Source: Deltaproteobacteria bacterium UBA5758 (GTDB lineage: Bacteria > Desulfobacterota > Syntrophorhabdia > Syntrophorhabdales > Syntrophorhabdaceae). From it: DNA of 17,632 nt. A program made the translations under genes and the position numbers. Where the stretch lies: positions 1 through 17,632 of the forward strand of contig DIFC01000046.1 of assembly GCA_002418945.1 (NCBI GenBank). Direction: 5' to 3'. The notes below the pieces were generated by a model. It was not told the origin of the DNA and made no database searches. It worked only from the letters and a program-made list of their open reading frames with translations. Positions 1,094-17,632 of this stretch are shown one piece after another (positions within the stretch are counted from its first letter, which is position 1; every line of letters starts with the position of its first letter).

Positions 1094-1123
1094 GTATAAC
1101 GAACAGAGAAAGGCAGGACATGT

Positions 1124-2314: not shown

Positions 2315-3072
2315 TGAGAACATGGATGGTTGCCGGAAACTGGAAAATGAACAACACGATCCGCGAGGCGATAGACCTTGCGAAGGACGTGAGGGACAGA
2401 GCCGCGGGGGCCAAGGGCGGAGAGGTGGTGCTGGCCCCGCCGTACACTGCGCTGCAGAGCGTCTATGAAACGATAAAAGGCTCTCAGATCCTGCTCGCCG
2501 CGCAGAATATCTATTTTGAGGACAAAGGCGCCTACACCGGCGAGGTGTCGCCTGCCATGCTGAAGGATGCAGGCTGTACCTACGTTATCGTCGGGCACTC
2601 GGAGAGAAGAAAATATTTCCACGAGACCGATGAAGGCGTCAACATGAAGGCAAAGAAATGCTTACTGTCAGGGCTGAAGCCGATCATATGTGTGGGCGAA
2701 ACTGAGACCGAAAGGGAAAAGGGGGTCACTGAATTCGTCATCGGTATTCAGGTAAAAAAGGCCCTCTCCGGCATCGATACCCTTGACAACGTTGTTATCG
2801 CCTACGAGCCTGTGTGGGCTATCGGCACCGGCAAGAACGCAACGCCGATAGAGGCGGAGGAGGTCCACAGGTTTATCAGGAACATCGTGGGCGACATGTA
2901 CGGCGATATATGCAAAAAAATAATGATCCTTTACGGCGGAAGCGTAACGCCCGACAATATTGGAGAACTGATCAATATGGAAGACGTTGATGGGGCGCTT
3001 GTCGGCGGAGCATCCTTGAAAATTGACAGCTTTCTTGGTATAATAAGGAACATTACGGAGAAACAGAAATGA
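2314..3072 (+). CDS. tpiA: Triosephosphate isomerase
   Basis: 252 aa; AGNWKMN, VIVGHSERR, VIAYEPVWAIGTGK, LYGGSVTPDN motifs; overlaps pgk stop by 1 nt (TAATG). Confidence 0.97.
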   Translation: MRTWMVAGNWKMNNTIREAIDLAKDVRDRAAGAKGGEVVLAPPYTALQSVYETIKGSQILLAAQNIYFEDKGAYTGEVSPAMLKDAGCTYVIVGHSERRKYFHETDEGVNMKAKKCLLSGLKPIICVGETETEREKGVTEFVIGIQVKKALSGIDTLDNVVIAYEPVWAIGTGKNATPIEAEEVHRFIRNIVGDMYGDICKKIMILYGGSVTPDNIGELINMEDVDGALVGGASLKIDSFLGIIRNITEKQK

Positions 3073-3368
3073 TGACGGTTATTTCAATAATTCATGTGGT
3101 AGTTGCTGTGGCCCTAATCTTTATCGTTCTCCTTCAGACAGGAAGGGGATCTGAGATCGGGGCAGCCTTCGGAGGCGGCTCCAGCCAGACGCTGTTCGGG
3201 AGTTCGGGTTCATCAGGCTTTATGACGAAGCTTACTACCGCGGCGGTCGTCATCTTTATGGTGACGAGCCTCGGCCTGGCATATATTTACAGCCACAGAG
3301 AAGCTGGATTGAAGATAGCTCCTGTTCAAACAGAAGAGAATGTACCTCCTGTCCAGGAGAAAAAATGA
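3069..3368 (+). CDS. secG: Preprotein translocase subunit SecG
   Basis: 99 aa with two hydrophobic segments, LLQTGRGSEIGAAFGGGSSQTLFGSSG signature; ATGA overlap with tpiA. Confidence 0.93.
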   Translation: MMTVISIIHVVVAVALIFIVLLQTGRGSEIGAAFGGGSSQTLFGSSGSSGFMTKLTTAAVVIFMVTSLGLAYIYSHREAGLKIAPVQTEENVPPVQEKK

Positions 3369-3370
3369 GT

Positions 3371-3455
3371 GCCGAAGTGGTGGAATTGGCAGACACACCA
3401 TCTTGAGGGGGTGGCGGGGAGACCTGTGCGGGTTCAAATCCCGCCTTCGGCACCA
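3371..3455 (+). tRNA. tRNA-Leu, anticodon GAG, CCA encoded
   Basis: Acceptor stem GCCGAAG/CTTCGGC, anticodon stem CCATC/GGTGG with loop TTGAGGG, long variable arm, T-arm GCGGGTTCAAATCCCGC, terminal ACCA. Confidence 0.96.
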
Positions 3456-3646: not shown

Positions 3647-4279
3647 ATGGGATGGAAAAACATTATACTGGATTTTGACGGAACACTTATTGATTCACAG
3701 CATCTTTTTCTTGCCTGTGCAAACGAATTAAGCGAGGTATTCGGATATGAACCGATCGACCAGATCTCAAGGCTGCGCGAGAAAAGCACGCCCTCCGTGC
3801 TGACTGACGTGCTGGGTCTGCTGCCTGAACAGATACCTCTATGGATGCAGAAATTAAAGGACAGGCTTAGTAACAATATACGCAGCGCTGTTACAGTCAA
3901 GGGGATGAAAGAAGCCCTCTTTGCCCTGCGGGATGACTATCGTCTGGGCATATTGACATCGAACTCTGAAGAGACGGTGAGGCATATTCTTGTTAGAGAT
4001 GGTATTGGACAAGTCGATTTCATATGGGCTGACGCATATGTATTAGAAAAGGATAGGGCTATCGAGGGGGCGGTGGCAAAATATGCCCTTTCTCGGGAAG
4101 AGACGGTTTATGTCGGGGATGAGGTAGGAGATGTTGACGCCTGCCGAAAAGTGGGTATCAAGATTATCGCTGTGTCCTGGGGCTTCAACTCCAAAAAAAT
4201 ACTTGAAAGAAAGGAACCGGACTATCTGGTTGAAACGCCGATGCAGTTACGTTCCATCTTAAAAACTTATGATATTTAA
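3647..4279 (+). CDS. HAD-superfamily hydrolase, phosphoglycolate phosphatase-like
   Basis: DFDGTLIDS motif I, ILTSNS motif II, YVGDEVGDVDACRKVG motif IV; ATG at 3647 preceded by GGGTGGGG (track start 3632 is an upstream TTG). Confidence 0.85.
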   Translation: MGWKNIILDFDGTLIDSQHLFLACANELSEVFGYEPIDQISRLREKSTPSVLTDVLGLLPEQIPLWMQKLKDRLSNNIRSAVTVKGMKEALFALRDDYRLGILTSNSEETVRHILVRDGIGQVDFIWADAYVLEKDRAIEGAVAKYALSREETVYVGDEVGDVDACRKVGIKIIAVSWGFNSKKILERKEPDYLVETPMQLRSILKTYDI

Positions 4280-4380: not shown

Positions 4381-5034
4381 ATGACTATACGCTTAATTCT
4401 GGCTGACGATCACAAAATAGTACGAGAGGGGCTTCGTGCCATCTTTGAAAAAATAACCGATGTTGAAGTGATTGCAGAGGCCGAGGATGGATTGGAAACA
4501 GTGCGACTCGCCAAAAAATTGCTGCCGGACATTGTGATCATGGATATAGGCATGCCCAATATGAACGGCATCGATGCTACCCGTCAGATCATAGCAGAGA
4601 CCAAGGGCGTAAGGGTGCTTGCGCTATCCACGCACACAGACAGCAAGTTTGTAATGCAAATGCTGGGTGCAGGCGCATCGGGATACCTCCCCAAGGATTG
4701 TACCTGCGAGGAGCTTGTAGCGGCGCTTCATGCGGCAATCACAAACCAGCTTTATCTAAGTCCGCGGATAACTGATGTGGTGATAAGAGAGTACCTCCAT
4801 AATCTCCCCAAAAGGGAGCCTTCCGTATTTACCATACTAACAACCCGTGAGCGGGAAGTGCTTCAAATGATGGCCGAGGGAAAAACAACAAAAGAGATTG
4901 CATCAAGGCTTAATGTAAGCGTAAAAACAGTTGATACCCATCGCCAGCAGATAATGGCGAAGCTCAATATTCACAGCATTGCAGAGCTTACGAAATATGC
5001 GATTCGCGAGGGGATCACCTCCCTCGAACCTTAA
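4381..5034 (+). CDS. NarL/FixJ (LuxR)-family response regulator
   Basis: 217 aa; receiver domain ADDHKIVREGL, IVIMDIGMPNMNG phosphoacceptor region, SGYLPKD; LuxR-type HTH LTTREREVLQMMAEGKTTKEIASRLNVSVKTVDTHRQQIMAKL. Confidence 0.93.
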   Translation: MTIRLILADDHKIVREGLRAIFEKITDVEVIAEAEDGLETVRLAKKLLPDIVIMDIGMPNMNGIDATRQIIAETKGVRVLALSTHTDSKFVMQMLGAGASGYLPKDCTCEELVAALHAAITNQLYLSPRITDVVIREYLHNLPKREPSVFTILTTREREVLQMMAEGKTTKEIASRLNVSVKTVDTHRQQIMAKLNIHSIAELTKYAIREGITSLEP

Positions 5035-5287
5035 GTCGCCTCGCACCCGTACAGCCATCTTCTGTACTAATTTTCATACATTTGGAAGGTCAAAATCATA
5101 CTTTCGCCGATTGTCGACAGCCTAAATGGCGTGTACACTTGTAAAATAGAGCAAAAGCAAACAAGGAGGCGATAGAGTATTCGGTAGATAAGATATAACG
5201 ATTGATATAGGCATTAATGGTAAGCAATTTCTAGGATGCTGTGATATATGTTATGGGAAGTATCAAATAAAAAAAGGGGGCTACGAA

Positions 5288-6361
5288 ATGAATCCTGGAA
5301 AAACAGAAAGATGGGTAGTTTCTTTTCAAGAATGCGGAAAGGATGACGCCGGTTTAGTAGGGGGCAAGTCTGCCAACCTGGGAGAAATGTGCAAACTGGG
5401 AATCCCTGTCCCGCTGGGATTCACCGTTACGAGCGAAGTAAATAAAAGATTCTTCGAAATTACCAGCAATGAAAAAAAGATCGAGGAATTCCTCAGTAAG
5501 TTTCCCGAGAAGCCGACCGCCATTGATGAATTTAACGAAATAGCCAACTACGTTCAAAACCTTATTGAATCAACAGAGATCCCGGTAGAATTTCAAAAGC
5601 CAATCTCCGAGGCATACAGTGGTCTATGTGACAGGTATAAGGTAAAAGATGTTCCTGTGGCCGTCAGATCAAGCGGTGTAGCGGAAGACATGGCAATGGC
5701 AAGCTTTGCCGGGCAATACGATTCATATCTCAATGTGCAGGGCACGGAGGAGGTCTTCAAAAACGTGCTGAAGTGCTGGGCCAGTGCATTTACTCCACGC
5801 TGCATATCGTATCGTATCAAGAATAATTTGCCTATTTTCTCGAAAGCTGTCTCAGTGGCGGTTGCAGTGCAAAAAATGGTCAGGTCTCGTGCCTCCGGGG
5901 TAGGATTTACCGTTAATCCGAATACGGGCAATAAAACAAAGATAGTGCTCGAAGGTAATTGGGGAGTAGGTGAAAGCGTAGTTCAGGGGATAGTGGAACC
6001 GGACAGGTTCGAAGTTGATAAGGAGACGCTTAGAGTAGTAAATGCAGAAATCCGCTGCAAGCAGAAACAGGTCGTATTCTCAGAAAAGGGCACCATAGAG
6101 CAAGACGTTCCTGCGGAAAAACAGAAGACACCTTGTATAGCGCACTGTGAGGCTGAGATGGTGGCAAAGTGCGCAAAGATGGCTGAAGAATATTATGGCT
6201 TGCCCCTGGATATAGAGTGGGCCATAGACACAGATCTCGAATTTCCCCAGAATGTCTTTTTAGTGCAGGCGCGCCCTGTTACTGCGATGGCCACAGAAAG
6301 AAGCGCAACGGAAAAGATCCTCGATTTTTTGTGCACCCGTACATTCCCGGTGAGCCATTAA
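5288..6361 (+). CDS. PEP synthase-like nucleotide-binding (PEP/pyruvate-binding) domain protein, stand-alone; probable phenylphosphate synthase beta-like subunit (PpsB-like)
   Basis: 357 aa; GGKSANLGEMCKLGIPVPLGFTVT, VAVRSSGVAEDMAMASFAGQYDSYLNV, GNWGVGESVVQG, terminal VFLVQARPVTA; ends where full-length PpsA would continue into the phosphohistidine domain. Confidence 0.85.
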   Translation: MNPGKTERWVVSFQECGKDDAGLVGGKSANLGEMCKLGIPVPLGFTVTSEVNKRFFEITSNEKKIEEFLSKFPEKPTAIDEFNEIANYVQNLIESTEIPVEFQKPISEAYSGLCDRYKVKDVPVAVRSSGVAEDMAMASFAGQYDSYLNVQGTEEVFKNVLKCWASAFTPRCISYRIKNNLPIFSKAVSVAVAVQKMVRSRASGVGFTVNPNTGNKTKIVLEGNWGVGESVVQGIVEPDRFEVDKETLRVVNAEIRCKQKQVVFSEKGTIEQDVPAEKQKTPCIAHCEAEMVAKCAKMAEEYYGLPLDIEWAIDTDLEFPQNVFLVQARPVTAMATERSATEKILDFLCTRTFPVSH

Positions 6362-6378
6362 AAAACAGGAGAGTTATT

Positions 6379-7614
6379 ATGCCAAGAAGCATTGTCATCA
6401 TTGGGACCTTGGACACCAAATCTGAAGAAATTCTTTTCGCTAAGGAGCAGATCGAGCTTAGAGGTCATAAGGCGATCGTAATGGACATGAGTGTGGGCAG
6501 CAAACCGTCAGTCAAGGGGGATATTACCAGCCAGGAGGTGGCAAGGGAAGGCGGGGGCGACATAAAGGCGATATGGGGAAATCCGGATAGACCGAAGATC
6601 AACAAGATCATCACCGATGGCGCCATAAAGATATGCAACGAGCTCCTGAAGGAAGGAAAATTGGATGGGATTCTCTGTATCGGCGGCGCGGGCGGCACGC
6701 TTATCGGAACAGACGTGATGAAGGGTCTCCCTTTCGGGGTACCCAAATTTGTCATCTCCAGCAATGCAGCGCTTCCTGGATTTTCGTCAAAATATTTTGG
6801 CACAAAAGACATCACCATGATGCACACGATGGTAGATATTGCCGGATTGAATGATATCCTGAAGACTCTCTTAAGCCAGGCAGCCGGCGCTATTTGCGGA
6901 ATGGCAGAGGCATTTGCAATGTCGCCTCATACAACGTCCGATGCGGAGAAAAGGAAGTCTTCGGTTGCGCTCTGTGAGCTCATGGCGAGCGCAAAATGCA
7001 TCAGCAATATCAAGCGCCTCCTTGAAGAAAATGGTTATCAGGTAACTGTATTCATGGCAACCGGTGTTGGAGATACGGCAATGGAGGAGCTCATCAGCCA
7101 GGGGCTTTTTGATGCCGTATTGGATCTGTCTCCGGGAGGCATCATCGACAGCTTTATCGATGGCGGCACACGCAAGGCCTGCAAGGTAAGGTTGGAATCG
7201 GCAGGGCTCAAAGGGATTCCACAGGTCATCGTTCCTGGGGGGTTAGATTTTATTACGCCGCTGCTCTCAAAGTATAAACCGGAATATGATGAGCGAAAGA
7301 TCTTCAGGCCGGACAAGCTCAGGCAGCTCATCAGATCCAATATTGATGAATTAACCCGTGCCGCCGAAGTAATCGCCAAAAAGCTCAATGCAGCTAAGGG
7401 ACCTGTAAAATTCATAATACCCCTGAACGGGTGGTCCAGGGTCGACGGACCCGGAAGGCCTCTTTACGATCCTGAGGCGAATGCGGCATTTGTGAAAGAA
7501 TTGAGAAGACAGCTCAAGCCGGAAATTGAGGTCCGGGAGATCGATGCATGGATAGAAGACCCGGTCTTTGGCGATGTCCTGGTTGAGGCGCTCAATGAAA
7601 TGATGCACAAATAA
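6379..7614 (+). CDS. Tm-1-like ATP-binding domain protein (UPF0261 family)
   Basis: MPRSIVIIGTLDTKSEEILFAKEQIELRGHKAIVMDMSVG N-terminus, GGAGGTLIGTDVMKGLPFGVPKFVISS, C-terminal NGWSRVDGPGRPLYDPEAN; ATG at 6379 preceded by CAGGAGAG (track start 6217 overlaps the previous gene). Confidence 0.85.
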   Translation: MPRSIVIIGTLDTKSEEILFAKEQIELRGHKAIVMDMSVGSKPSVKGDITSQEVAREGGGDIKAIWGNPDRPKINKIITDGAIKICNELLKEGKLDGILCIGGAGGTLIGTDVMKGLPFGVPKFVISSNAALPGFSSKYFGTKDITMMHTMVDIAGLNDILKTLLSQAAGAICGMAEAFAMSPHTTSDAEKRKSSVALCELMASAKCISNIKRLLEENGYQVTVFMATGVGDTAMEELISQGLFDAVLDLSPGGIIDSFIDGGTRKACKVRLESAGLKGIPQVIVPGGLDFITPLLSKYKPEYDERKIFRPDKLRQLIRSNIDELTRAAEVIAKKLNAAKGPVKFIIPLNGWSRVDGPGRPLYDPEANAAFVKELRRQLKPEIEVREIDAWIEDPVFGDVLVEALNEMMHK

Positions 7615-7641
7615 GATGCCTTCACATATAAGGAGGTGGTG

Positions 7642-7683
7642 TTGTATGGCAGGTGCTTTCTTATAGTTTCAGAAGCATCCTAA
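7642..7683 (+). other. Possible leader/mini ORF(s) behind an orphan Shine-Dalgarno: TTG-started 13 codons (7642-7683) or ATG-started 6 codons MAGAFL (7646-7666)
   Basis: AAGGAGG at 7630-7636 followed at normal spacing by TTG (7642) or ATG (7646) but only very short frames, upstream of the ligase gene. Confidence 0.25.
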
Positions 7684-7710
7684 TACACAAAGAAAGGGAA
7701 GGAGGAAAAG

Positions 7711-9354
7711 ATGCGACCGCAACGTTATACAGATGAGATGGTTAAAGAATATTTGGATAAAGGCTACTGGACAAAGACTACCTACGCCGATCTGTTCGAA
7801 AGAAACGCTAAAGAGTATGCCCAAAAAGAAGCTTTTGTTGACGATTCGGGAAACAAATTTACATGGGCCGAGGCAAACCAGGCCGTAAACCGGCTTGCCT
7901 TGAAGCTTGTGGAACTGGGATATAACAAAGATGATACGCTTATGATCCAGCTCCCTAACCGCGTCGAGATCATCCTTATGCGCGTAGCATGCGAAAAGGC
8001 AGGGATCATCTCGATACCGGTGGTAAGGACCTTAAGACACGATGAAATAGGTTACATCCTGAAGCTTGCAGAGACAAAAGGCTATGTGGGCTTATGGAAA
8101 TTCAGAGATTTTGACTACTGGCAAATGATACAGGAGTTACGTCCAGGCCTGCCGGCATTAAAGAACATCTTTTTTTGCGGAGACGAGATCCCCGAAGGAG
8201 GAATCTCGATAAAAGAGGTCCTGGCAACCCCGATGGAGAAGAAATATTCAGTGGATGATTTGAAAAAGAGGCAGGTCCAGGTGGATGAAGTGGCATGGAT
8301 TGAGCTAAGCACGGGTACGACAGGTTTTCCCAAGGTTATACAGACGCCGATGGCGCTTGCTACATCGGTGTCTCCGTCGCATATGGCGAAGATCAAGATG
8401 ACCGGCGATGACGTAGCATGCGCCTTTGCCCCTATCTCAGGCGCAGGGCGCGGCCTCGCACGATTTACCCCTTTTGTGGCCGCGAAAGGAGTTTTGATGG
8501 AGCATTTTGATGCAGAAGATGCCTTCAAGCTCATAGAAAAGGAAAAGATATCGATACCAATGGTGGTGCCGGCCCAGCTTGCAATGATGCTCCAGAGCAC
8601 GAATTACACTAAATACGATCTGAGGTCACTCCGTGTATTCCAGGTTGCGGGCGCCCCGCTTCCTCCGCATATTGCAGAAGAGGTTGAGACAAGATTCAAA
8701 TGCCTTGTGGTGAACCATTACGGCGGCATGGATGCCGGTTCCCTGACAAGCGTCAGCGCAGATGATCCTGTGGAAGTGAGGCGCTTCTCCGTAGGAAAAC
8801 CCCACCCGGGAAATGAGATCAGATTGCTCGATGATAACGGGAAAGAGGTAAAACACGGAGAAGTCGGTGCAGTATATTTTAAGGGGCCTACCTCTGTCGG
8901 AGGATATTACAAAGATCCCGCAATGACAAAAGAGGCCTGGGGGGCAAATGGATTCAACATGGGCGACCTGGCAAAGTTCGATGAACAGGGGAATCTCTAT
9001 ATCGTAGGCAGAAAGAAAGACATCATAATCCGCGGCGGTTTTAATGTCTATCCCGCCGAGGTAGAGGCTATCCTTGTGACGCACCCAAAGGTGGAGGCGG
9101 CTGCAGTTGTCGGATACCCGGACCCGATAATGGGGGAAAGGGCGTGTGCCTATGTGGTGGTGAAGAAGGGCGAAACATTCACCTTTAAAGAGATGGGCGC
9201 CTATTTCAAAGAGAGGAAGATCAATCTTAACAAGACCCCGGAGAGGCTTGAGATCATAGAAAAGATGCCTCTTGTAGCCGATATGAAGCTGGACAAGAAG
9301 GTGCTGAAAGAAGACATACTTAACAAGGTCAAGAGTGAAGGCAAGGCCTCCTGA
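7711..9354 (+). CDS. AMP-dependent acyl/aryl-CoA synthetase or acyl-AMP ligase (2,3-dihydroxybenzoate-AMP ligase-like); candidate hydroxybenzoate-activating ligase
   Basis: 547 aa; LSTGTTGFPKVIQ (A3), GDLAKFDEQGNLYIVGRKKDIIIRGGFNVYPAEVE (A7/A8), MPLVADMKLDKKVLK (A10); GGAGG ribosome-binding site. Confidence 0.85.
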   Translation: MRPQRYTDEMVKEYLDKGYWTKTTYADLFERNAKEYAQKEAFVDDSGNKFTWAEANQAVNRLALKLVELGYNKDDTLMIQLPNRVEIILMRVACEKAGIISIPVVRTLRHDEIGYILKLAETKGYVGLWKFRDFDYWQMIQELRPGLPALKNIFFCGDEIPEGGISIKEVLATPMEKKYSVDDLKKRQVQVDEVAWIELSTGTTGFPKVIQTPMALATSVSPSHMAKIKMTGDDVACAFAPISGAGRGLARFTPFVAAKGVLMEHFDAEDAFKLIEKEKISIPMVVPAQLAMMLQSTNYTKYDLRSLRVFQVAGAPLPPHIAEEVETRFKCLVVNHYGGMDAGSLTSVSADDPVEVRRFSVGKPHPGNEIRLLDDNGKEVKHGEVGAVYFKGPTSVGGYYKDPAMTKEAWGANGFNMGDLAKFDEQGNLYIVGRKKDIIIRGGFNVYPAEVEAILVTHPKVEAAAVVGYPDPIMGERACAYVVVKKGETFTFKEMGAYFKERKINLNKTPERLEIIEKMPLVADMKLDKKVLKEDILNKVKSEGKAS

Positions 9355-9381
9355 GTTGTTAAGGGAGGTTATTCTATATCA

Positions 9382-9404
9382 ATAACTATCAGGAAGATAG
9401 TTAT
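9382..9404 (+). promoter_or_regulatory. Perfect inverted repeat/hairpin ATAACTATC-AGGAA-GATAGTTAT immediately upstream of the PpsA-like RBS
   Basis: 9-bp perfect stem, 5-nt loop, located between ligase stop (9354) and RBS GGGGG at about 9410-9414. Confidence 0.6.
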
Positions 9405-9418
9405 AAAAAGGGGGCATT

Positions 9419-11083
9419 ATGCATTATGGAAGGACACCGATGTGTTGGGAGATTACAGATTATGATCTTGAGCACTACCCTGTCTGGGTGAGGACGCCCG
9501 CTCACACAGAGCCGGTCATGACGCCGCTCTACTGTGAGTTCTGGTATGGGTACATGACGGACGGGATCCGCCGGGGCTGCGAATACATTTCGCTTCCCAC
9601 GACCCTTGGATATTACTGGAAGCTCTACAAGGGCCACGGTTATTTGACGCGGGCAATCCCGCTGGACAGCGAGATCCCCGCCAGGGAAAAAAGGTATCGT
9701 GAAATGGCGGCAAAGATCATTGATGATCCGTTCGGATTTTGCGACAGCATCTTTGCCAAGATGGATAAGCTCATGGAACCCTATTACGACATGAACCTTG
9801 AATCAATGACAAGGGGAGAGCTTATTGAGCATGTACACGATATGATCTACCTCCATACAAAAGCCATATACCTCTATTTTCAAGGCTGGTTTGGCGCAAC
9901 ACCGATGCCTGCGCTCTTTCAACAGCTTGCCGGGGAATTCACAGGTCTGAAGGCCACGGACCCGCTCTATTCAAAGCTGACGATAAGCATGGACAACCCT
10001 CTCTACAGGTCAAACCGGGGGATCGCCGACCTGGCGCGCCTGGCAATCGATTCAAAGATAGAGAAAAACCTGATGCTTCCCGACAATGAAGTAGTAAAAG
10101 CGATGGAACAGAGCGCGGCAGGAAAGAAATGGATTGAAGAGATGAAGAAATTTCTCAAGGTGCACGGATGGAAGCTGCTGCGCATGTACGAATTTGTTGA
10201 ACCGGGCTGGTATGAGGATCCGGCGATACTGATGCCCGATATAAAGAGATATATCGAAGTAGGTGGCGCGCACAAGATCGATGAAGATCGCGACGCAATG
10301 ACGAAAGAGAGGGATGAGTTGTCGAAGGAATTTCTTGCAAAGGTCCCCGAAGGCCAGCGGGACTGGATGGAAAAGCTCCTTGTGGCCGCACGCGCCGCAA
10401 ACCACTGGAGCGAGGGGGCGGCATGGCATGGTGAATTCAAACGCATGGCCTTCGGAAGGCGTTGTTTCATCGAATGCGGCAAGAGGATGGTCCAGGATGG
10501 AGCCCTCAATGATGTGAACGATGTATTTATGCTGTTCACCGATGAGATCATTTCCGCCGTCGGCAACCGGGAAAAGGGACGCTATGTACAGCTTGTCCAG
10601 GACAGGCGCAAGGAATGGGAAGGCTATAAGGCGCTCACATATGGTTCGGACGAAGTGCCCCCGGTTCTGGGCGACCCCAATGCCATCATGCCGATGCTCA
10701 AATTTGATCCCACGCTTACCGTGAGCATCTCTATGCCCATCGAAGATCCTGAAAAGGTGGGAGCCGTCTGCGTCGGCGGGGCAGGGAGCCCCGGTGTAGT
10801 TGAGGGGATCGCAAAGGTCATCTTTGATGAATCACAGTGGAAGGAGATCCAGAAAGGCGACATCATGGTCTGCCCCATGACAAGCGCCACGTGGACCCCG
10901 CTATTCGGTATTATCAAAGGGTTGGTATGCAATAGCGGAGGCTCTTTATCGCACCCGGTTATTGTGAGCCGCGAATATGGTATACCGGCAGTGGTCGGAA
11001 CGGGTGATGCTACCATGAAGATCAAGACAGGAGATAAGTTAAGGATCGACGGGAACCTCCTGAGGGTTTACAAGATAAGCTGA
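9419..11083 (+). CDS. PEP-utilizing enzyme mobile (phosphohistidine) domain protein; probable phenylphosphate synthase alpha-like subunit (PpsA-like)
   Basis: 554 aa; C-terminal GGSLSHPVIVSREYGIPAVVGTGDATMKIKTGDKLRIDG matches the swivelling phosphohistidine domain; no N-terminal ATP-binding domain. Confidence 0.82.
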   Translation: MHYGRTPMCWEITDYDLEHYPVWVRTPAHTEPVMTPLYCEFWYGYMTDGIRRGCEYISLPTTLGYYWKLYKGHGYLTRAIPLDSEIPAREKRYREMAAKIIDDPFGFCDSIFAKMDKLMEPYYDMNLESMTRGELIEHVHDMIYLHTKAIYLYFQGWFGATPMPALFQQLAGEFTGLKATDPLYSKLTISMDNPLYRSNRGIADLARLAIDSKIEKNLMLPDNEVVKAMEQSAAGKKWIEEMKKFLKVHGWKLLRMYEFVEPGWYEDPAILMPDIKRYIEVGGAHKIDEDRDAMTKERDELSKEFLAKVPEGQRDWMEKLLVAARAANHWSEGAAWHGEFKRMAFGRRCFIECGKRMVQDGALNDVNDVFMLFTDEIISAVGNREKGRYVQLVQDRRKEWEGYKALTYGSDEVPPVLGDPNAIMPMLKFDPTLTVSISMPIEDPEKVGAVCVGGAGSPGVVEGIAKVIFDESQWKEIQKGDIMVCPMTSATWTPLFGIIKGLVCNSGGSLSHPVIVSREYGIPAVVGTGDATMKIKTGDKLRIDGNLLRVYKIS

Positions 11084-11214
11084 TAGCGGGAAGCATAAAT
11101 CCAGGGAGCTTTTAAGCGGATAAAGAACAGGCAGGTCAGCGCCCGTAATGATGATTGCGGTTAGGCGCAGTGCTGAAGGCTCAAGGTTTATAAACTTATT
11201 TCGGAGGGTGAGCT

Positions 11215-12624
11215 ATGAAAGATTTACGAGACTTTATAGCCAAATGCGAGCAGGAAGGCGAGCTCCGTCGCATTAAGGCGGAGGTAGATTGGAATTTGGA
11301 ACTATCCCACGTAGCCAAAAAGAATGAAGAGCTGGGTGGCGGGTCCGCACTCCTCTTTGAGAATGTCAAGGGTTATAAAATACCGGTTTTTATAAGCGCA
11401 TTCACAAGACCCAGGCGGATGGCGATCGCCATGGGACAGCCGGTGCATTACTCCATGCAGGACCTGTCCCGGGAGTGGATGAATTTAGTCACCAAAAAGC
11501 TTATAAAGCCGAAGATGGTAAAGAAGGCCCCCCTCATGGAAAACGTACAGGCAGGGGATAAGGTCAACCTCTATGATCTGCCTGCCCCCTTCTTCAACAT
11601 ATTAGATGGGGGGAGATTTATCGGTACCGCTGTGTATCTCGTAACCAAAGACCCGGAGACAGGCTGGGTCAATCTTGGAACCTATCGGATGCAGATTCAC
11701 GAGAAGAACAAATGCGGAGTTCAGATCATTAAAGGCAAGCACGGCGACCTGATGCTTCAAAAATATAGAGCAAAAAAGCAAAAAATGCCTGCCGTGGCGG
11801 TCATTGGTGGTGACCCTCTACTGTATCTTGTCTCGAGTTGCATGGTTTCTGCCCAGACAGACGAATATGATATTGCAAGCACGCTGCGAGGGGAACCTAT
11901 AGACATCATAGAGAGCGACCTGACGGGTCTGCCCCTTCCGGCATATGCCGAAATTGCCTTAGAGGGAGAAATAGACCCGGACAACCTCATAACAGAAGGC
12001 CCCTTTGGTGAATACACCGGCTATTACTCGGGCAAGCCATCACCGAAGATATTTCTCGACGTGAAAAGGGTGCTGCACAGGAACAATCCCATCTTCTGGG
12101 CAACTGCTGTTGGAAGGCCGCCAAACGATGTAGTAATGATCCAGTCGCTTAACCGTACTGCGAGCCTATGGGCGGACTTGAAAGATATGAAGATCCCGGG
12201 AATAAAGGCCGTCCATGTTCCCGCTTCATCGTCCGGCAGGTACTGGGCAATCGTATCCGTCAAGCAACAGTATCCGGGCCATTCCATGCAGGTAGGAACG
12301 GCGGTTATTTCTACTACAACAGGAAGCTACGGCCTCAAGGGAGTTATTGTTGTAGGGGATGATATTGATGTTGAAAATTGGGATCAGATCATCTGGGCGC
12401 TTTCTGTGAGGTTTGACCCTGCACGTTCTGCGCAGATCATAAACAGGGGACGTTCAACTCCCCTGGATCCTTCCCTCCCTGTTGCGGCACGGGAGATCAC
12501 CTCGAGAATAATCATGGACGCTTGCACCCCATTTGAATGGAAAGAAATGCCGGTTCCCGTTGATCCGGATAAGGCAACAACAGAAAAGGTGGAGAAGAGA
12601 TGGAAAGAAATTTTTCCTGATTGA
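11215..12624 (+). CDS. UbiD-family decarboxylase/carboxylase (candidate phenylphosphate carboxylase or hydroxybenzoate decarboxylase-like enzyme)
   Basis: 469 aa; MKDLRDFIAKCEQEGELRRI N-terminus, AEIALEGEI...EGPFGEYTGYYSGKPSPKIF UbiD signature, ITSRIIMDA C-terminal segment; CGGAGG ribosome-binding site. Confidence 0.9.
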   Translation: MKDLRDFIAKCEQEGELRRIKAEVDWNLELSHVAKKNEELGGGSALLFENVKGYKIPVFISAFTRPRRMAIAMGQPVHYSMQDLSREWMNLVTKKLIKPKMVKKAPLMENVQAGDKVNLYDLPAPFFNILDGGRFIGTAVYLVTKDPETGWVNLGTYRMQIHEKNKCGVQIIKGKHGDLMLQKYRAKKQKMPAVAVIGGDPLLYLVSSCMVSAQTDEYDIASTLRGEPIDIIESDLTGLPLPAYAEIALEGEIDPDNLITEGPFGEYTGYYSGKPSPKIFLDVKRVLHRNNPIFWATAVGRPPNDVVMIQSLNRTASLWADLKDMKIPGIKAVHVPASSSGRYWAIVSVKQQYPGHSMQVGTAVISTTTGSYGLKGVIVVGDDIDVENWDQIIWALSVRFDPARSAQIINRGRSTPLDPSLPVAAREITSRIIMDACTPFEWKEMPVPVDPDKATTEKVEKRWKEIFPD

Positions 12625-12659
12625 ACATGCTGAAAGTTCCTGCACAATGGTTTACATCG

Positions 12660-12686
12660 AAGAGACCCCGCGGCCCGGGGTCTCTT
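12660..12686. terminator. Strong GC-rich hairpin AAGAGACCCCG-CGGCC-CGGGGTCTCTT between convergent genes, possibly bidirectional terminator
   Basis: 11-bp perfect stem, 5-nt loop, 35 bp after the UbiD stop and 36 bp from the MBL stop; lacks a long U tract. Confidence 0.65.
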
Positions 12687-12722
12687 CTCATTTGACCCCG
12701 GCCTGCAGCCCCGCCAACTCCA

Positions 12723-13700
12723 TCATATCCTCGAGTATACTATCTTTTTTTCTCTTGTCTCCTTTTTTATCATCCCTTTTCCTTCAAGGTATTTTAAATG
12801 GGCGATCGCCTCACCGGTAGCGAAAAATTTCTGCATGGCAGGAAAAGAACCCCAGGAGTCGCAATCAATATTCCATGTCATCTGCGATGCCACCTGGTAG
12901 GCATTTTGGCTGCATTCCTTCAGTATGGAGATAATTTCATTGCTCCGCTGCCTGTGATGGTCTTTCAATTCCCTGATCCTTTCTTTGCAATTCCTGAAGC
13001 TGCCTTTGTGGCCAGGCAAAACAAGTTTGATATCCAGTTCATACACCCTGTCCAGGCTTAAGAGGTATTCCTCCAAGGGGTTCGCGGCGTCATATCTTGA
13101 CAAAATAGAAGGCGTTATCTCATTGAGGAGATGATCTCCTGATATAAAGATCTTCTTATCGGGCTCGTATAGACACATATGGCCCCTGCTGTGACCAGGC
13201 GTTGCTACACATTGGAATCGGTATTCCCCTGCCTCTAATCTGTCTCCATCTGCCAGAAACGTAAAGGGGAGGGGTTTCCTCCACCAGTGGTCATGAACGG
13301 GGCGGAAAGTGAGGGCTTCCTGAAGCTCATCCTCGGGGAAACCGCTCATTCGGCCGGAATCAGTGAGCTCTTGCAAAAAATTGCCGGACCTCACCCAATC
13401 AATGCCGGCAGACTCTGTTTTGTTAAAGTATATGGTTGAGTTATCGGATATTAATGTGGGGGCAAGGCCGAAATGATCCATGTGAAAATGGGTAATGAAA
13501 AGGTCTGTTCTTTCCAGATCTACTCCAAGCTTCTCCAAACTTTTATGCATTGCCTGCCGGCCTTCTTCATTGTCCATCCCTGTATCGATAATCAGATTCC
13601 TGTTTTTTGCCTTGATGATATATGAGTTGACAAACTGCAAAACCATATCGGGAAGGGGAATCTCAATCTTGTATAAGTTTGCAGCGATTTGTTCTATCAT
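12723..13700 (-). CDS. MBL-fold metallo-hydrolase with C-terminal winged-helix-like region (glyoxalase II/LACTB2-like)
   Basis: THFHMDHFG, ATPGHSRGHMCLY, FISGDHLL, LVLPGHKG metal-binding motifs; ATG at 13700. Confidence 0.88.
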   Translation of the reverse strand: MIEQIAANLYKIEIPLPDMVLQFVNSYIIKAKNRNLIIDTGMDNEEGRQAMHKSLEKLGVDLERTDLFITHFHMDHFGLAPTLISDNSTIYFNKTESAGIDWVRSGNFLQELTDSGRMSGFPEDELQEALTFRPVHDHWWRKPLPFTFLADGDRLEAGEYRFQCVATPGHSRGHMCLYEPDKKIFISGDHLLNEITPSILSRYDAANPLEEYLLSLDRVYELDIKLVLPGHKGSFRNCKERIRELKDHHRQRSNEIISILKECSQNAYQVASQMTWNIDCDSWGSFPAMQKFFATGEAIAHLKYLEGKGMIKKETREKKIVYSRI

Positions 13701-13880
13701 CAACCTGACCTGCCTTGCATTATTGTACTGCTAACGGCGCTGCCGCATGTATGTTTTTCGCTGAAAGTGAGGGTACAACAGCCCGGGCAACGGGGTCAAG
13801 CCTTTTATTTTTGCATGTCAAGATTTCCCCGCGAGAAGCCGGTGAGTGGCCGGATGATGGGCGGGTACAGATTTTGATCC

Positions 13881-13990
13881 CCCCCTCACCCTTGACCCTC
13901 TTCCGCCAGGGGAGAGAGAACGGTGTTGCCTAATGAAAAGAGAACACACCAGTACTTATACACCGGCCCTCTAACGCGAGGGAAGGGATA
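13881..13990. repeat. Possible degenerate palindromic intergenic repeat (CCCTC...GAGGG type) with two imperfect/short hairpins
   Basis: CCCCCTCACCCTTGACCCTCTTCCGCCAGGGGAGAG and CCCTC-TAACGC-GAGGG (13967-13982) in a 495-bp non-coding gap; resembles common proteobacterial CCCTCACCC...GGGAGAGGG intergenic elements. Confidence 0.35.
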
Positions 13991-14195
13991 ACCTTACCCA
14001 ATCTGTAGGCTGGGACCTTCTGTAAATTATCATGCTAAATTGATCCAGTATTTTCACGAAAGCTGGTCCACCTGCATTATCCTGCCTTCTATCAGCAAAA
14101 CATGATAGGAGGAGAAAGGTGGTCAGCATAGAAGACGAACGCACAATATGTGGTGTAGGAAAAACAGGTGAACTGAAATTCATGAAAAAGTTGCA

Positions 14196-15338
14196 TCATG
14201 TATAGTTCTCGAGGAGAAGAGACAATGTCCGTTCGATACTGCCAGGTTCTTTCTCTTCAATTTCCCTTATCGCTTTCTTGATGCGGGCATAGGTGTATTT
14301 ATCCTGCAAGTCGCTGGTACTCTCATACATTCCTGTCATTCTCCCGTATCGATAAACAAGCCTTTGCTCTTCAGTCAGTGCAAAAAAGTCATTGATTACG
14401 GACAATAGATGATCTTTATCTTCGGGAAGCTTGCCATCCACCTCTTGAAGGAGATTAAAGATGTGGTCGCTTTTTATGTGGCTGGTTATGCCTTCAAGCC
14501 GTTCTATAATGGACTTTTCCTCAACAAGAACCTCCTCTTCATGCAGTATTGTGAAATCACCACTTTCTACTTTTTGGTAGAGTGGCATCCCTCTCAATAC
14601 CTTCAAGGTCCTAAAGCGAATGAACGCCGGATTAATCCTGTTTAACGTATCAGAAGTTTCTGAGACATGCTCCTTCCACCATCTTTTGCCTCCTAGTCCA
14701 AGGATCACATACTCTGAGAGCTCGATGCCTGATTCCTTTACTTTTTGCGCACAATCAATATGCTCCTCTTTTGTTACCCCTTTGTTCATATACTTTAGGA
14801 GAAGATTACTTCCCGTTTCAAGACCGATGTGAAGCCTTGTCAGACCTGCTTCCCGCATTCTTACAAGGTCATCAACGGTAAATCGTTTTGCAATGGTGCG
14901 GGAACGGGCGTAGGAAGTTATTCTTTCGATAGAGGGAAATTGTTCTTTCAAGTATGAAAGGGCTTCAATAAAATCTCCGGGCTTCATGACCAGAGAATCA
15001 GCATCCTGAATAAAAACGTTCCGGCCCCCAGAATAGAGCCAGATTGCAATGCTTGCAAAGTATTCGTTGTAGAAATATGTTGAGGTGATGATGTTGAGAA
15101 AGTTGTCGTTAATAGCCCCGCCGAAGCCTTTTTCCCACGACAGGGCAACGATTTCGTCCCGTATTTTACGGATAGAATCAATGTCTTTTTTAATTTCTTC
15201 AACGCTGCGTTTTTCGAATCTATTATTTTTAAAGGTTCTGCAGAAGAGACACTTATTCCATGGACAATTTCTTGTAAATCTCACAAGGAGACTGCCTGCT
15301 TCGTTTGGTGGTCGTATCGGCCCTATTTCGTTATACAA
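14196..15338 (-). CDS. Radical SAM protein of unknown function
   Basis: 380 aa; TRNCPWNKCLFC cluster motif, LTRLHIGLETGSN, VSETSDTLNRINPAFIRFRTL; likely TTG start, 24 bp after the ubiX stop. Confidence 0.82.
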   Translation of the reverse strand: MYNEIGPIRPPNEAGSLLVRFTRNCPWNKCLFCRTFKNNRFEKRSVEEIKKDIDSIRKIRDEIVALSWEKGFGGAINDNFLNIITSTYFYNEYFASIAIWLYSGGRNVFIQDADSLVMKPGDFIEALSYLKEQFPSIERITSYARSRTIAKRFTVDDLVRMREAGLTRLHIGLETGSNLLLKYMNKGVTKEEHIDCAQKVKESGIELSEYVILGLGGKRWWKEHVSETSDTLNRINPAFIRFRTLKVLRGMPLYQKVESGDFTILHEEEVLVEEKSIIERLEGITSHIKSDHIFNLLQEVDGKLPEDKDHLLSVINDFFALTEEQRLVYRYGRMTGMYESTSDLQDKYTYARIKKAIREIEEKEPGSIERTLSLLLENYT

Positions 15339-15362
15339 TGAGACACCATTACATTCTAAAGA

Positions 15363-15971
15363 TCAGGTTCTCCGGTTTCCAACACTTTGTGCGAGTTCAA
15401 TCTTGTTCGCGGCCTCCCCCTCCCATCTTTGAAAGAGATTGTGATCTATATCCATAAGGTCCAGTATCTTGCCCACGATGTGATCTATAAGATCCTCGAT
15501 TTTTCTTGGATAATGATAAAAGGCAGGAACAGGGGGTAGAATTACGCCGCCCCGGTCGGCTACTTTAGTCATTAACTCAAGATGGCCCTTGTGAAGAGGT
15601 GTTTCCCTGACTACCAAAACAAGTCGCCGCCCTTCCTTCAGCATTACATCGGCTGCCCTTGTAATAAGGTTGTCATTATAGGAACTGGCTACGCCAGATA
15701 ACGTTTTGATGGTACACGGGACGATTACCATTCCGTCTGTTTTGAAGGACCCGCTTGAGATAGAAGCCGCCATATCCTTGGGGTTATAAAGCCTCGAAGC
15801 AAACTTTTTGACGTCTTTTACTGTCATATCGGTCTCAATGATAATATTTTGCTCGGCTGCTTCAGACATCACAACGTGTGACTCGATATCCGTGTCTTGC
15901 AACACTTCCAGTAGCCTCACGCCATAAATGACCCCGGTTGCCCCCGTGATTCCTACGATGATTTTCTTCAT
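15363..15971 (-). CDS. ubiX: Flavin prenyltransferase UbiX
   Basis: MKKIIVGITGATGVIYGVRLLEVL, SISSGSFKTDGMVIVPCTIKTLSGVA, ETPLHKGHLELM, PVPAFYHYPRKIEDLIDHIVGKILDLM; ATG at 15971 with AGGAGG 7 nt upstream. Confidence 0.95.
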   Translation of the reverse strand: MKKIIVGITGATGVIYGVRLLEVLQDTDIESHVVMSEAAEQNIIIETDMTVKDVKKFASRLYNPKDMAASISSGSFKTDGMVIVPCTIKTLSGVASSYNDNLITRAADVMLKEGRRLVLVVRETPLHKGHLELMTKVADRGGVILPPVPAFYHYPRKIEDLIDHIVGKILDLMDIDHNLFQRWEGEAANKIELAQSVGNRRT

Positions 15972-16021
15972 TCCGTGGCCTCCTGTACAGAGCATCTTCA
16001 ACTGTTTTGAGTTTTAAATTA

Positions 16022-16037
16022 TGCAAATGTCATACCA
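16022..16037 (-). promoter_or_regulatory. Sigma-54 (-24/-12) promoter upstream of ubiX: TGGTATG-ACAT-TTGCA
   Basis: GG-N10-GC spacing exact; 10 of 12 defined positions match TGGCACG-N4-TTGCW; AT-rich flank; about 50 bp upstream of the ubiX ATG, next to a sigma-54 activator gene. Confidence 0.78.
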
Positions 16038-16207
16038 TTTAAGTTTTTTAACCAGTTATCCAATATTAAAAAATTATGGAAGCATTGAGAGGGGGATAAT
16101 TTCTTAGCTGGATCGTGTGCCGTTTGTGATTCTTCGCTGCTTTTACCCAAAGGAGATTTTATGCCCTTGGGCGTAGAACTTAAAAGGAAATTATGAAAGT
16201 CTATAAG

Positions 16208-17632
16208 TTATTTGGTGATGATGTTGTACAGTTTCATCTTTTTGTAAAGAGTAACCCTTGACATATTTAGGAGTATTGCTGCCTGCCTTTTGTTGCCCTT
16301 GGTTCTTTCGAGAACGGATAAAATCAAATTTTTTTCATCCTTTTCAGGCATTCGGCTTTCCGCGGAAAAAACATGAGCAAAACCGGTCTCTTGGTCCTCG
16401 GGGGAAAGTATTTCTCTCGGCAGGTGTTCTAATGCAATCTCGCGCGCATCCCATGCAGTGATGGCTATCTGCTCCAGTATGTGTATAAGTTGCCTTACAT
16501 TCCCGGGCCACTGGTAGCTGATAAGCTTATCCAAAGCTTCTTTGGTATATCCTCTGATATTGGTTTTAAAGGATTTATTGATATTATCCAGGAAAGAATG
16601 CAAATACAAGGGGATATCTTCCGGGCGTTCACGCAGACTGGGGGCGTGCAGACTTGCTGAGGCTACCCTGTAATAAAGATCATGGCGAAATTTTCCTTCC
16701 TCTACGAGTTTGCGCAGGTCCACATTTGTGGCCGCAATAAACCGGAAATTTACCTTAACGGCCTTGTTGCTTCCCAACCTTTGTATCTCTCTCTCCTGAA
16801 GCACACGTAAAAGCTTTGCCTGAATCGAGAGGGGCAATGACGAGATTTCATCTAAAAACACGATGCCATTATTAGCTGTCTCAAAAATGCCTGCTTTGCC
16901 CGATGAATTTGCGCCTGTATATGCCCCCTTCTCGTACCCAAAAAGTTGGGATTCGGCGAGTTCAAAAGGAATGGCAGGGCAATTTAATTTTACAAAAGGC
17001 TTATCGTTGCACCGGTAGCTATGAATGCTGTGGGCGAACAATTCCTTACCGGTTCCACTCTCTCCCTCAATCAGAACATCGGCATCAAGCATTGATATTC
17101 TTTTTGCAGTAGCTACGGTGTCTCGGATTAACCAGCTTTTGCCTAAGATACTGTCAAAGGTGTATGCCGAACTGTACTCAGTTTTCTGCCTTTGCTTGAG
17201 ATTGTGCATTTCATTCTTCAGACGAGTTATTTCTTTGTGCACCTTTTCCAGTTCTTCAAGAGGATGAAAGACTATCCTCCCGATGGCGCCAACAATCTCC
17301 CCCTTTGTTCTGAGTGGATAAACAGAAGTTACCCTCTTGACCTCCCCGACTTCCCTTACTCTCCCGATGACAGGGGTTCCTGTTGTTATCGCCAATTGGT
17401 AATCTGAAGCGGGCGCCAGCTCCAGTATGTTCTTGCCTATGCCGCCGCCGGGTTGTAGCCCCAAAAATTTCTCTGTCGGTGGGTCGATGAACTGGATAAT
17501 GTAATTTTTGTCTATTACCGTAATGCTTTCATAACGGTTTTTGAAGCAAAACTTTACTACTGAAGCAATGACAGGGTTATATGGGTACGGTTCAATCGCC
17601 GCGAGCAAATCCTGCCTTTCCTTGTTCTTCAT
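16208..17632 (-). CDS. Sigma-54-dependent transcriptional activator: PAS sensor, AAA+ domain, Fis-type HTH (5' end at window edge; may be complete or extend beyond)
   Basis: 474 aa; PAS-like N-terminus, GESGTGKE Walker A, GAYTGA (sigma-54 contact loop), GIVFLDEISSL Walker B, C-terminal LERTKGNKRQAAILLNMSRVTLYKKMKLY. Confidence 0.93.
   Translation of the reverse strand: MKNKERQDLLAAIEPYPYNPVIASVVKFCFKNRYESITVIDKNYIIQFIDPPTEKFLGLQPGGGIGKNILELAPASDYQLAITTGTPVIGRVREVGEVKRVTSVYPLRTKGEIVGAIGRIVFHPLEELEKVHKEITRLKNEMHNLKQRQKTEYSSAYTFDSILGKSWLIRDTVATAKRISMLDADVLIEGESGTGKELFAHSIHSYRCNDKPFVKLNCPAIPFELAESQLFGYEKGAYTGANSSGKAGIFETANNGIVFLDEISSLPLSIQAKLLRVLQEREIQRLGSNKAVKVNFRFIAATNVDLRKLVEEGKFRHDLYYRVASASLHAPSLRERPEDIPLYLHSFLDNINKSFKTNIRGYTKEALDKLISYQWPGNVRQLIHILEQIAITAWDAREIALEHLPREILSPEDQETGFAHVFSAESRMPEKDEKNLILSVLERTKGNKRQAAILLNMSRVTLYKKMKLYNIITK

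Follow-up and report, generated by a model that had tools for sequence, protein, structure and literature searches.

The stretch of DNA analysed here, referred to as the window, comprises the 17,632 nucleotides of contig DIFC01000046.1 from Deltaproteobacteria bacterium UBA5758, a member of the Syntrophorhabdaceae. Its plus strand carries a closely spaced block of five genes (5288-12624), on which the minus-strand genes at 12723-17632 converge. In order, the block encodes a PasB-like protein, the stand-alone ATP-grasp subunit of a split phosphotransferase (5288-6361); an ATP-binding protein of the UPF0261 (Tm-1-like/MarK) family (6379-7614); an aryl-acid AMP/CoA ligase, putatively acting on 4-aminobenzoate or 4-hydroxybenzoate (7711-9354); a PasA-like protein with a substrate-binding region and a swivelling phosphohistidine domain (9419-11083); and a PpcB-type UbiD (de)carboxylase (11215-12624). 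An earlier note, made from the sequence alone, had named the split phosphotransferase, the aryl-AMP ligase and UbiD on the plus strand and UbiX on the minus strand as a candidate phenol-type activation locus, and Pfam and NCBIfam searches located each of these elements where it had placed them. Its inventory of the interval was otherwise incomplete, as it omitted the genes for the UPF0261 protein, a metallo-beta-lactamase-fold hydrolase (12723-13700) and a radical-SAM protein (14196-15284).

PasB matches Pfam PPDK_N at E 1.8e-97 over profile positions 3-317 of 328, and PasA consists of Rph_4th and a C-terminal PEP-utilizers swivel domain (E 4.9e-21) bearing the phosphohistidine motif GGSLSHP, the histidine of which is residue 512. 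The PEP-utilizers_C TIM barrel, which binds phosphoenolpyruvate (PEP) or pyruvate, was found by Pfam in neither half of the phosphotransferase. Moreover, against one and the same PEP synthase model (cut-off 598 bits) PasB scored 324 bits and PasA 86 bits. The best relatives of PasA in the PDB are structures of rifampin phosphotransferase (Rph; 5hv2 and 5fbs, E ~1e-27), to whose residues ~554-871 PasA residues 209-546 align, while for its N-terminal ~200 residues the PDB search returned no solved relative. PasA is also related to PigC/RedH. Both Rph and the PigC/RedH enzymes phosphorylate a small-molecule acceptor via a swivelling histidine, and they share with the window proteins the combination of ATP-grasp, small-molecule-binding and swivelling histidine domains without a pyruvate-binding barrel; however, Rph consists of one polypeptide and acts on an antibiotic, whereas here the ATP-grasp domain is a separate protein. 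Relatives of PasA are scarce, 5.8 billion clusters yielding 194 proteins at E <= 1e-10, and the NCBIfam subfamily model that fits it best gave 167 bits (cut-off 578). The name 'phenylphosphate synthase' is absent among the 120 best relatives of PasA, and likewise among those of PasB.

The ligase is built from AMP-binding and AMP-binding_C domains (Pfam). Its nearest solved structures are aryl-acid adenylating enzymes, namely DhbE (1e-67) and a salicylate-AMP ligase, and it scored 186 bits against the benzoate-CoA ligase family model (cut-off 375). The UbiD protein comprises the UbiD_N, UbiD and UbiD_C domains (Pfam) and passes the NCBIfam equivalog TIGR02724 (phenyl_P_beta) with 546.5 bits against a cut-off of 468.95, but fails the alpha model TIGR02723 (199 bits, cut-off 565).

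The closest counterpart of the five-gene block is the ani cluster of Desulfatiglans anilini. A genome scan with degenerate patterns missed this organism, the patterns being unmatched there, and it was recovered via cluster members, as a PasA relative 71 % identical to the window protein lies in a 90 % cluster containing WP_084517632.1 (D. anilini Pasα). The D. anilini contig (AULM01000060.1; L022) reads, in order, molybdenum cofactor (MoCo)-binding subunit, PasA-receiver fusion, PPDK_N, UPF0261, AMP ligase, PasA and UbiD, which is the ani cluster H567DRAFT_03866-03872 with the five-gene core at 03868-03872. According to Xie et al. (2020; PMC7500099), 03868 is Pasβ, 03871 is Pasα with catalytic His512 and 03872 is Ppcβ; 03869 is an 'Uncharacterized protein, UPF0261 family', only detected in aniline- or 4-aminobenzoate-grown cells, and 03870 is an acyl-CoA synthetase and putative 4-aminobenzoyl-CoA ligase that is induced on aniline and 4-aminobenzoate. 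The window has the same five genes in the same order (pasB-UPF0261-acyl-CoA synthetase-pasA-ppcB), with product lengths of 357, 411, 547, 554 and 469 aa here and 353, 411, 549, 554 and 473 aa in D. anilini. Identities are 51 % for PasB, 62 % for UPF0261, 66 % for the ligase, 71 % for PasA and 69 % for UbiD. Window PasA and Pasα align without a gap over 554 residues, and His512 coincides in the two. Finally, in a neighbour-joining tree of 125 tips (among them the window UbiD with the 120 relatives that match it best; no bootstrap) every context-verified ani-type UbiD falls inside one clade of 17 tips.

The two loci also differ. The host here is a syntroph of the Syntrophorhabdaceae, whereas D. 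anilini is a sulfate reducer; the window is without the upstream PasA-receiver fusion gene; its regulators are a NarL-type response regulator and a nearby sigma-54 enhancer-binding protein (EBP); and UbiX is encoded close by, whereas in D. anilini it sits in the phe cluster. On balance, it is probable that block 5288-12624 is the orthologue of the D. anilini ani operon in an uncultured member of the Syntrophorhabdaceae, with aniline or another arylamine as the most probable substrate and the reactions as set out below. The locus is thus an ani-type system in a new host and not a new pathway.

By analogy with the biochemistry of D. anilini, PasB would spend ATP to phosphorylate His512 of PasA, releasing AMP and Pi, and PasA would move the phosphoryl group onto aniline's amino group, giving phenylphosphoamidate, through which the D. 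anilini aniline route passes (PMC7500099). The PpcB-type UbiD, using prenyl-flavin mononucleotide (prenyl-FMN) that the nearby UbiX would provide, is predicted to carboxylate the activated ring para to the substituent, yielding 4-aminobenzoate (or 4-hydroxybenzoate), and the aryl-acid ligase would then make the CoA thioester for the benzoyl-CoA pathway. In D. anilini, refolded Pasα, Pasβ, Ppcβ and Ppcβ2 form 4-aminobenzoate from aniline, bicarbonate and ATP, for which ADP is no substitute, and aniline or 4-aminobenzoate gives much higher levels of the ani proteins than phenol or benzoate does (PMC7500099).

The earlier note had compared the locus with the phenylphosphate synthase and carboxylase of Thauera aromatica (PpsABC/PpcABCD). 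The chemical logic of that comparison holds: in both systems the phosphotransferase is split into ATP-grasp and histidine-domain subunits, the window UbiD passes the PpcB equivalog, and the sequence would be phosphorylation, para-carboxylation and ligation to CoA. As the closest known system, however, Thauera gives way to the ani cluster, which is 51-71 % identical and has the same gene order. The distinct gene content and order that had been suspected relative to Thauera was borne out. The window operon lacks a second UbiD of the PpcA type, no CBS-domain (PpsC-type) gene was detected in the window by domain scan, and no homologue of the small gamma subunit PpcD was found in the window, the open reading frames (ORFs) in 13704-14195 being uninformative. 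The Thauera PpsC is reportedly a stimulating CBS-domain subunit. The HAD-IA hydrolase gene at 3647-4279 on the plus strand was considered as a PpcC delta subunit and rejected, as it matches phosphoglycolate-phosphatase/PpaX-like models only and is not conserved with the core. Conversely, the UPF0261 and ligase genes lie inside the operon here, unlike in Thauera. The window offers no counterpart to the small ORFs that follow ubiD in D. anilini and Desulfobacula. The distance between the two types is also seen in D. anilini itself, where Pasα shares 28 % identity with Thauera PpsA and Pasβ 41 % with PpsB (PMC7500099). The locus would work like the Thauera system but belongs to the ani type.

Compared with every fetched locus in a tblastn matrix, the window proteins revealed a colinear five-gene core in at least four other lineages. 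Since the same order recurs in these lineages, the grouping of the five genes is not due to chance. Core order is identical in L022 (D. anilini), L006, L018 and L029, and core identity to the window is 55-73 % in Desulfobacula sp. LigF6_bin14, 56-74 % in Desulfobacterales SF_100_bin76 and 50-67 % in a Thermincola metagenome-assembled genome (MAG) from a nitrate-reducing benzene culture. In Thermincola a three-subunit xanthine-dehydrogenase-family enzyme (FAD_binding_5, Fer2 and MoCoBD domains) is encoded directly 3′ of the core, and in Desulfobacula and D. anilini the same reductase type lies just upstream of it. This three-subunit architecture is that of 4-hydroxybenzoyl-CoA reductase (Hcr). 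The adjoining Hcr-like genes therefore suggest that the core supplies a 4-substituted benzoyl-CoA from which the substituent is then removed reductively, and they fit an amino and a hydroxyl group alike. By the same matrix, the genes for the HAD hydrolase, the response regulator, the metallo-beta-lactamase, the radical-SAM protein and the EBP stand beside the core in same-species contigs only. Among the related loci, UbiX is near the core only in L018 (Desulfobacterales SF_100_bin76), where it lies downstream and is 52 % identical. In the Thermincola locus (L029 5823-17139) the core and three Hcr-like genes make up a compact eight-gene unit, with relA upstream and hisS and aspS downstream.

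Aniline, or an arylamine close to it, is the most probable physiological substrate, as each gene of the block has its orthologue in a set that is induced by and converts aniline and the UbiD lies in the ani clade. Several points weigh against this assignment. PasB is only 51 % identical to the characterised Pasβ, one UbiD is present in the window whereas the D. anilini reaction in vitro needed two, and there are no Hcr-like molybdenum (Mo)-reductase genes in the window. The ani clade of the UbiD tree is modestly separated, the window UbiD being 66-74 % identical to ani-type proteins and 59-66 % to many annotated as PpcB. UbiX seems to belong to a sigma-54-type transcription unit separate from the five-gene operon, and a strain variant (L001) is without the radical-SAM, UbiX and EBP genes. 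Cultured Syntrophorhabdus are known for phenol and not aniline, a literature search gave no report linking Syntrophorhabdus with aniline, and D. anilini Pasαβ is promiscuous towards phenol (PMC7500099). For the window itself, the analysis establishes homology, synteny, the kept His512 and the family of each protein, whereas the order of reactions is carried over from D. anilini.

Phenol is accordingly a serious alternative, given the promiscuity of Pasαβ, the degradation of phenol by Syntrophorhabdus and the missing literature link to aniline. The block would then be a streamlined, strict-anaerobe version of the Thauera system that takes phenol via phenylphosphate and 4-hydroxybenzoate to 4-hydroxybenzoyl-CoA. 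The passing of the curated phenylphosphate carboxylase beta model by UbiD, with which the NCBI naming agrees, is what this scheme would predict, and Syntrophorhabdus is the classic syntrophic phenol degrader; moreover, the Hcr-like neighbours seen elsewhere would suit reduction of 4-hydroxybenzoyl-CoA equally to deamination. The biochemistry of D. anilini cuts both ways, as Pasαβ makes phenylphosphate from phenol in vitro but the carboxylase pair left phenylphosphate unconverted, and whereas aniline and 4-aminobenzoate induce the cluster, phenol leads to weak production only (PMC7500099). In addition, the window ligase falls below the benzoate/4-hydroxybenzoate-CoA ligase family cut-off and is orthologous to the aniline-induced ligase. 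A phenol operon is consequently regarded as rather unlikely, although it is the main alternative.

Less likely again is the same chemistry on some other amino- or hydroxy-substituted aromatic, such as a toluidine, aminophenol, cresol, catechol, hydroquinone or N-heterocycle. Identities of 51-71 % leave scope for a shift in specificity, and PasA-like, PasB-like and UPF0261 modules are indeed reused elsewhere without UbiD, for example with aldehyde:ferredoxin oxidoreductase (AFOR), short-chain dehydrogenase/reductase (SDR) and FAD oxidoreductase genes, RidA and electron-transfer flavoprotein (ETF). Nevertheless, it is with the aniline cluster specifically that the window shares the order of all five genes and the clade of its UbiD, and the window operon has no extra tailoring genes.

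If the arylamine assignment is right, it extends the reach of a pathway whose biochemistry has been worked out in one organism only, a sulfate reducer. A full orthologous operon is now present in a widespread bioreactor syntroph as well as in Desulfobacula and Thermincola, so that Syntrophorhabdaceae may degrade aniline syntrophically. The five-gene core also offers a gene marker for anaerobic activation of arylamines (or phenol) in methanogenic and contaminated systems. That it includes an unstudied UPF0261 protein could help to clarify both the energetics of Pas/Pps enzymes and the function of a large uncharacterised family, and this conserved but atypical protein is the most interesting component of the locus.

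The UPF0261 gene begins 17 bp past the pasB stop codon, and its product has the N and C domains of UPF0261 (Pfam). The protein matches PDB 9mpy, a UPF0261-domain protein that we take to be the crystal structure of MarK, at E 1.8e-51. MarK (Saro_1862) of Novosphingobium aromaticivorans phosphorylates acetovanillone and other phenolics, converting ATP to ADP, and was in 2025 the first catalytic assignment in the UPF0261 family; its residues G195, H219 and H304 bind acetovanillone, the aromatic substrate, and are >90 % conserved among homologues, and in many genomes homologues of MarK are accompanied by PpsAB-like dikinases (PMC12624787). Among the closest known systems, the acetovanillone dikinases AcvAB/HpeHI stand beside MarK. 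The window protein resembles MarK in having both UPF0261 domains and the ATP motif D14-T15-K16, but differs in that G195, H219 and H304 are replaced by M202, M226 and P311.

This replacement pattern was followed through the Pas-linked UPF0261 homologues of the window, L006, L007, L012, L015, L022, L029 and L032. Met, Met and Pro occupy the three positions in the window, D. anilini, Desulfobacula, Thermincola and L007, and near-identical replacements occur in clusters without UbiD, the exceptions being Ala for G195 in L012 and Leu for H304 in L015. The D-T-K motif is kept in all of the homologues examined, with Arg for Lys in L032. By contrast, among the 150 nearest family representatives, drawn from a library of 1.84 billion proteins, the Met-Met-Pro type of signature occurs in 0/150 and Gly-His-His in 90/150. 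The UPF0261 gene is linked to Pas genes throughout and lies directly 3′ of the ATP-grasp gene in six of seven architectures, which include UbiD-less or reordered clusters. No fusion of UPF0261 with PPDK_N or PEP-utilizers domains was present among the 150 representatives, a few long members of which carry duplicated UPF0261, GNAT or cNMP-binding domains.

From these sequence features we infer that the UPF0261 protein is functionally coupled to the Pas phosphotransferase and does not act as an independent MarK-like kinase. A bolder proposal, put forward tentatively and considered the less likely outcome by some way, is that UPF0261 would be indispensable to aryl phosphotransferases of this class, as their third component. 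In that case it could load or regulate the phosphohistidine of PasA, converting ATP to ADP; such a role would account for the weak activity seen with reconstituted Pasαβ and would alter how much ATP energy-limited syntrophs and sulfate reducers spend on activating aniline or phenol.

It is very unlikely that the UPF0261 protein is itself the aromatic kinase, working like MarK from ATP to ADP while PasA and PasB serve another purpose: although aromatic kinase activity has been demonstrated for MarK (PMC12624787) and the D-T-K ATP-binding motif is kept, D. anilini Pasαβ phosphorylates its substrates without UPF0261 (PMC7500099), and the Pas-linked homologues replace the MarK residues (G195 by Met or Ala, H219 by Met, H304 by Pro or Leu). 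Practically no credence is given to an ordinary split PEP synthase or pyruvate dikinase beside unrelated genes, which automatic annotations (pyruvate,water dikinase or PEP-utilizing enzyme) would favour, as the nearest homologues are not ordinary pyruvate or PEP enzymes: the PEP/pyruvate-binding barrel is missing, scores lie far under the PEP synthase cut-offs (324 against 598 bits for PasB), the best solved relative is Rph, and synteny with UbiD and the ligase is kept across phyla.

UbiX (202 aa; minus strand, 15363-15971) is securely identified, with 272.5 bits against a cut-off of 188 for NF004685, 252 bits against 109 for TIGR00421 and E 3e-45 for Pfam Flavoprotein. The radical-SAM gene (minus strand, 14196-15284) lies downstream of it. 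The EBP gene (minus strand, 16208-17632) encodes 474 aa with Sigma54_activat, AAA_lid_14 and HTH_8 domains and a weakly PAS-like N-terminus (PAS fold E 0.0018). A pattern search placed a candidate sigma-54 promoter, TGGTATGACATTTGC, on the minus strand at 16037-16023, between the EBP gene and ubiX and so upstream of ubiX and the radical-SAM gene. It has two mismatches to TGGCAC-N5-TTGC and the correct GG-N10-GC spacing. Its position is the one argument for it: the window-wide count of sigma-54 patterns is below chance expectation, and TGGTATGACATTTGC is the only well-placed site. The earlier note had UbiX down for the prenyl-FMN cofactor; the family identity of UbiX was upheld, and its gene apparently belongs to a separate sigma-54-type unit.

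Three features are seen in contigs that reach 500-560 bp beyond the window: a tandem repeat of variable copy number, another sigma-54-like site, CGGCATGTTTTTTGCT, and, ~415 bp past the EBP start codon, the beginning of a plus-strand gene. The first 49 residues of this gene match UbiD_N (E 3.4e-4), and CGGCATGTTTTTTGCT, which is divergent from the EBP gene, precedes it. The region with the gene start was found in L002 (16347-16979), in L003 and in L026-L028, and the same 5′ coding sequence recurs in L034 (14366-14488), downstream of genes for a TRAP transporter, a Mo-oxidoreductase, a 2-oxoacid:ferredoxin oxidoreductase and Hcr-like proteins. Every contig, including those of 89-210 kb, terminates within the UbiD_N-like gene. 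Because all contigs end there and the same 5′ sequence is found in L034, the gene is probably a second UbiD gene, present in repeated copies that would break the assemblies. It might be the counterpart of D. anilini Ppcβ2. The EBP is a probable regulator of ubiX and of the second UbiD operon beyond the window. Given the sigma-54 site and this second UbiD, UbiX may therefore primarily serve the neighbouring UbiD unit, although the ani-type UbiD could also receive its cofactor from it.

The tandem repeat, TTACATGTTAAT(T), lies directly upstream of the EBP gene (L002 ~16375-16410), just outside window position 17632. It is present in three copies in L002, L003 and L028 and in two copies in L026 and L027, and might represent either an array bound by a regulator or a repeat that varies between strains.

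Up to ~13888, within the intergenic region 13701-14195, the strain variant L001 matches the window exactly, and it then diverges fully (L001 10456 onwards). Its replacement genes are SCO4226-like, RcnB-like and for molybdenum-cofactor biosynthesis. Because L001 diverges at this point, the UbiX side is not fixed to the operon. The metallo-beta-lactamase gene (minus strand, 12723-13700; 325 aa, Lactamase_B E 2.4e-23), which is convergent with ubiD, is kept in L001, L002 and L003.

The radical-SAM protein (362 aa, Radical_SAM E 2.4e-15) has the cysteine motif CPWNKCLFC, i.e. C-x4-C-x2-C in place of the usual C-x3-C-x2-C, and gave weak matches only, to B12-binding/HpnJ-type and MnmL-type families. 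Its gene is probably outside the core operon.

PasA-like genes also occur in conserved contexts without UbiD (L012-L015, L020 and L021; L009-L011; L032-L033). Genes of the PasB-like, UPF0261 and ligase types are among their neighbours in L012-L015, and across the UbiD-less loci the partners include aldehyde:ferredoxin oxidoreductase, SDR, amine-oxidase-like FAD enzymes, RidA, ETF, old yellow enzyme and an ARMT1-like phosphatase. These loci are probably activation modules for other substrates. Two further loci were examined as the canonical Syntrophorhabdus pps-ppc operon and set aside: P0209 is another cluster type, with UbiD, ligase and Hcr, and P0047 has a PasA-like gene together with FAD oxidoreductases, SDR and UPF0261.

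Fusions to receiver domains were observed for both halves of the phosphotransferase. PasA-receiver fusions of ~720 aa are encoded at L006 3488-5659 and L022 984-3140, the latter being 03867, which is strongly induced on aniline in D. anilini, and PPDK_N-receiver fusions of 499 aa at L007 15059-16558, L012 6662-8161 and L015 12004-13503. The window has neither a PasA-receiver nor a PPDK_N-receiver fusion. The existence of such proteins suggests phosphotransfer between a dikinase-type histidine and a response-regulator aspartate. The response regulator of the window was considered as the counterpart of the fused receivers and rejected, as it showed generic receiver similarity only (E 0.003-0.09).

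This response regulator, of the NarL/LuxR type (plus strand, 4381-5034; Response_reg and GerE domains in Pfam), is encoded directly upstream of the five-gene operon and is a possible regulator of it. A terminator-like hairpin lies at 5049-5067, between its gene and position 5288. No sigma-54 promoter was found 5′ of pasB (5035-5287) by pattern search, and scans for sigma-70 promoters and terminators gave counts no higher than in shuffled sequence. Directly 5′ of the catabolic region the plus strand carries a housekeeping block (95-3455) of gap (95-1093), pgk (1124-2314), tpi (2314-3072), secG (3069-3368) and tRNA-Leu(GAG) (3371-3455). The tRNA alone was matched in an Rfam scan of the window, and a genomic island at tRNA-Leu finds no sign in the form of a second copy of the tRNA end within the window.

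The host is confirmed as a member of the Syntrophorhabdaceae by exact matches in NCBI of its PGK, GAPDH and UPF0261 proteins to MAG proteins HOE16188.1, HOE16189.1 and HOE16182.1. The PasA and UbiD relatives HOE16180.1 and HOE16179.1 (>=90 % clusters) belong to the same Syntrophorhabdaceae MAG. Product names given by NCBI are 'PEP-utilizing enzyme', 'Tm-1-like ATP-binding domain-containing protein' and 'phenylphosphate carboxylase subunit beta'. The locus was met repeatedly across many metagenomes and sequencing runs.

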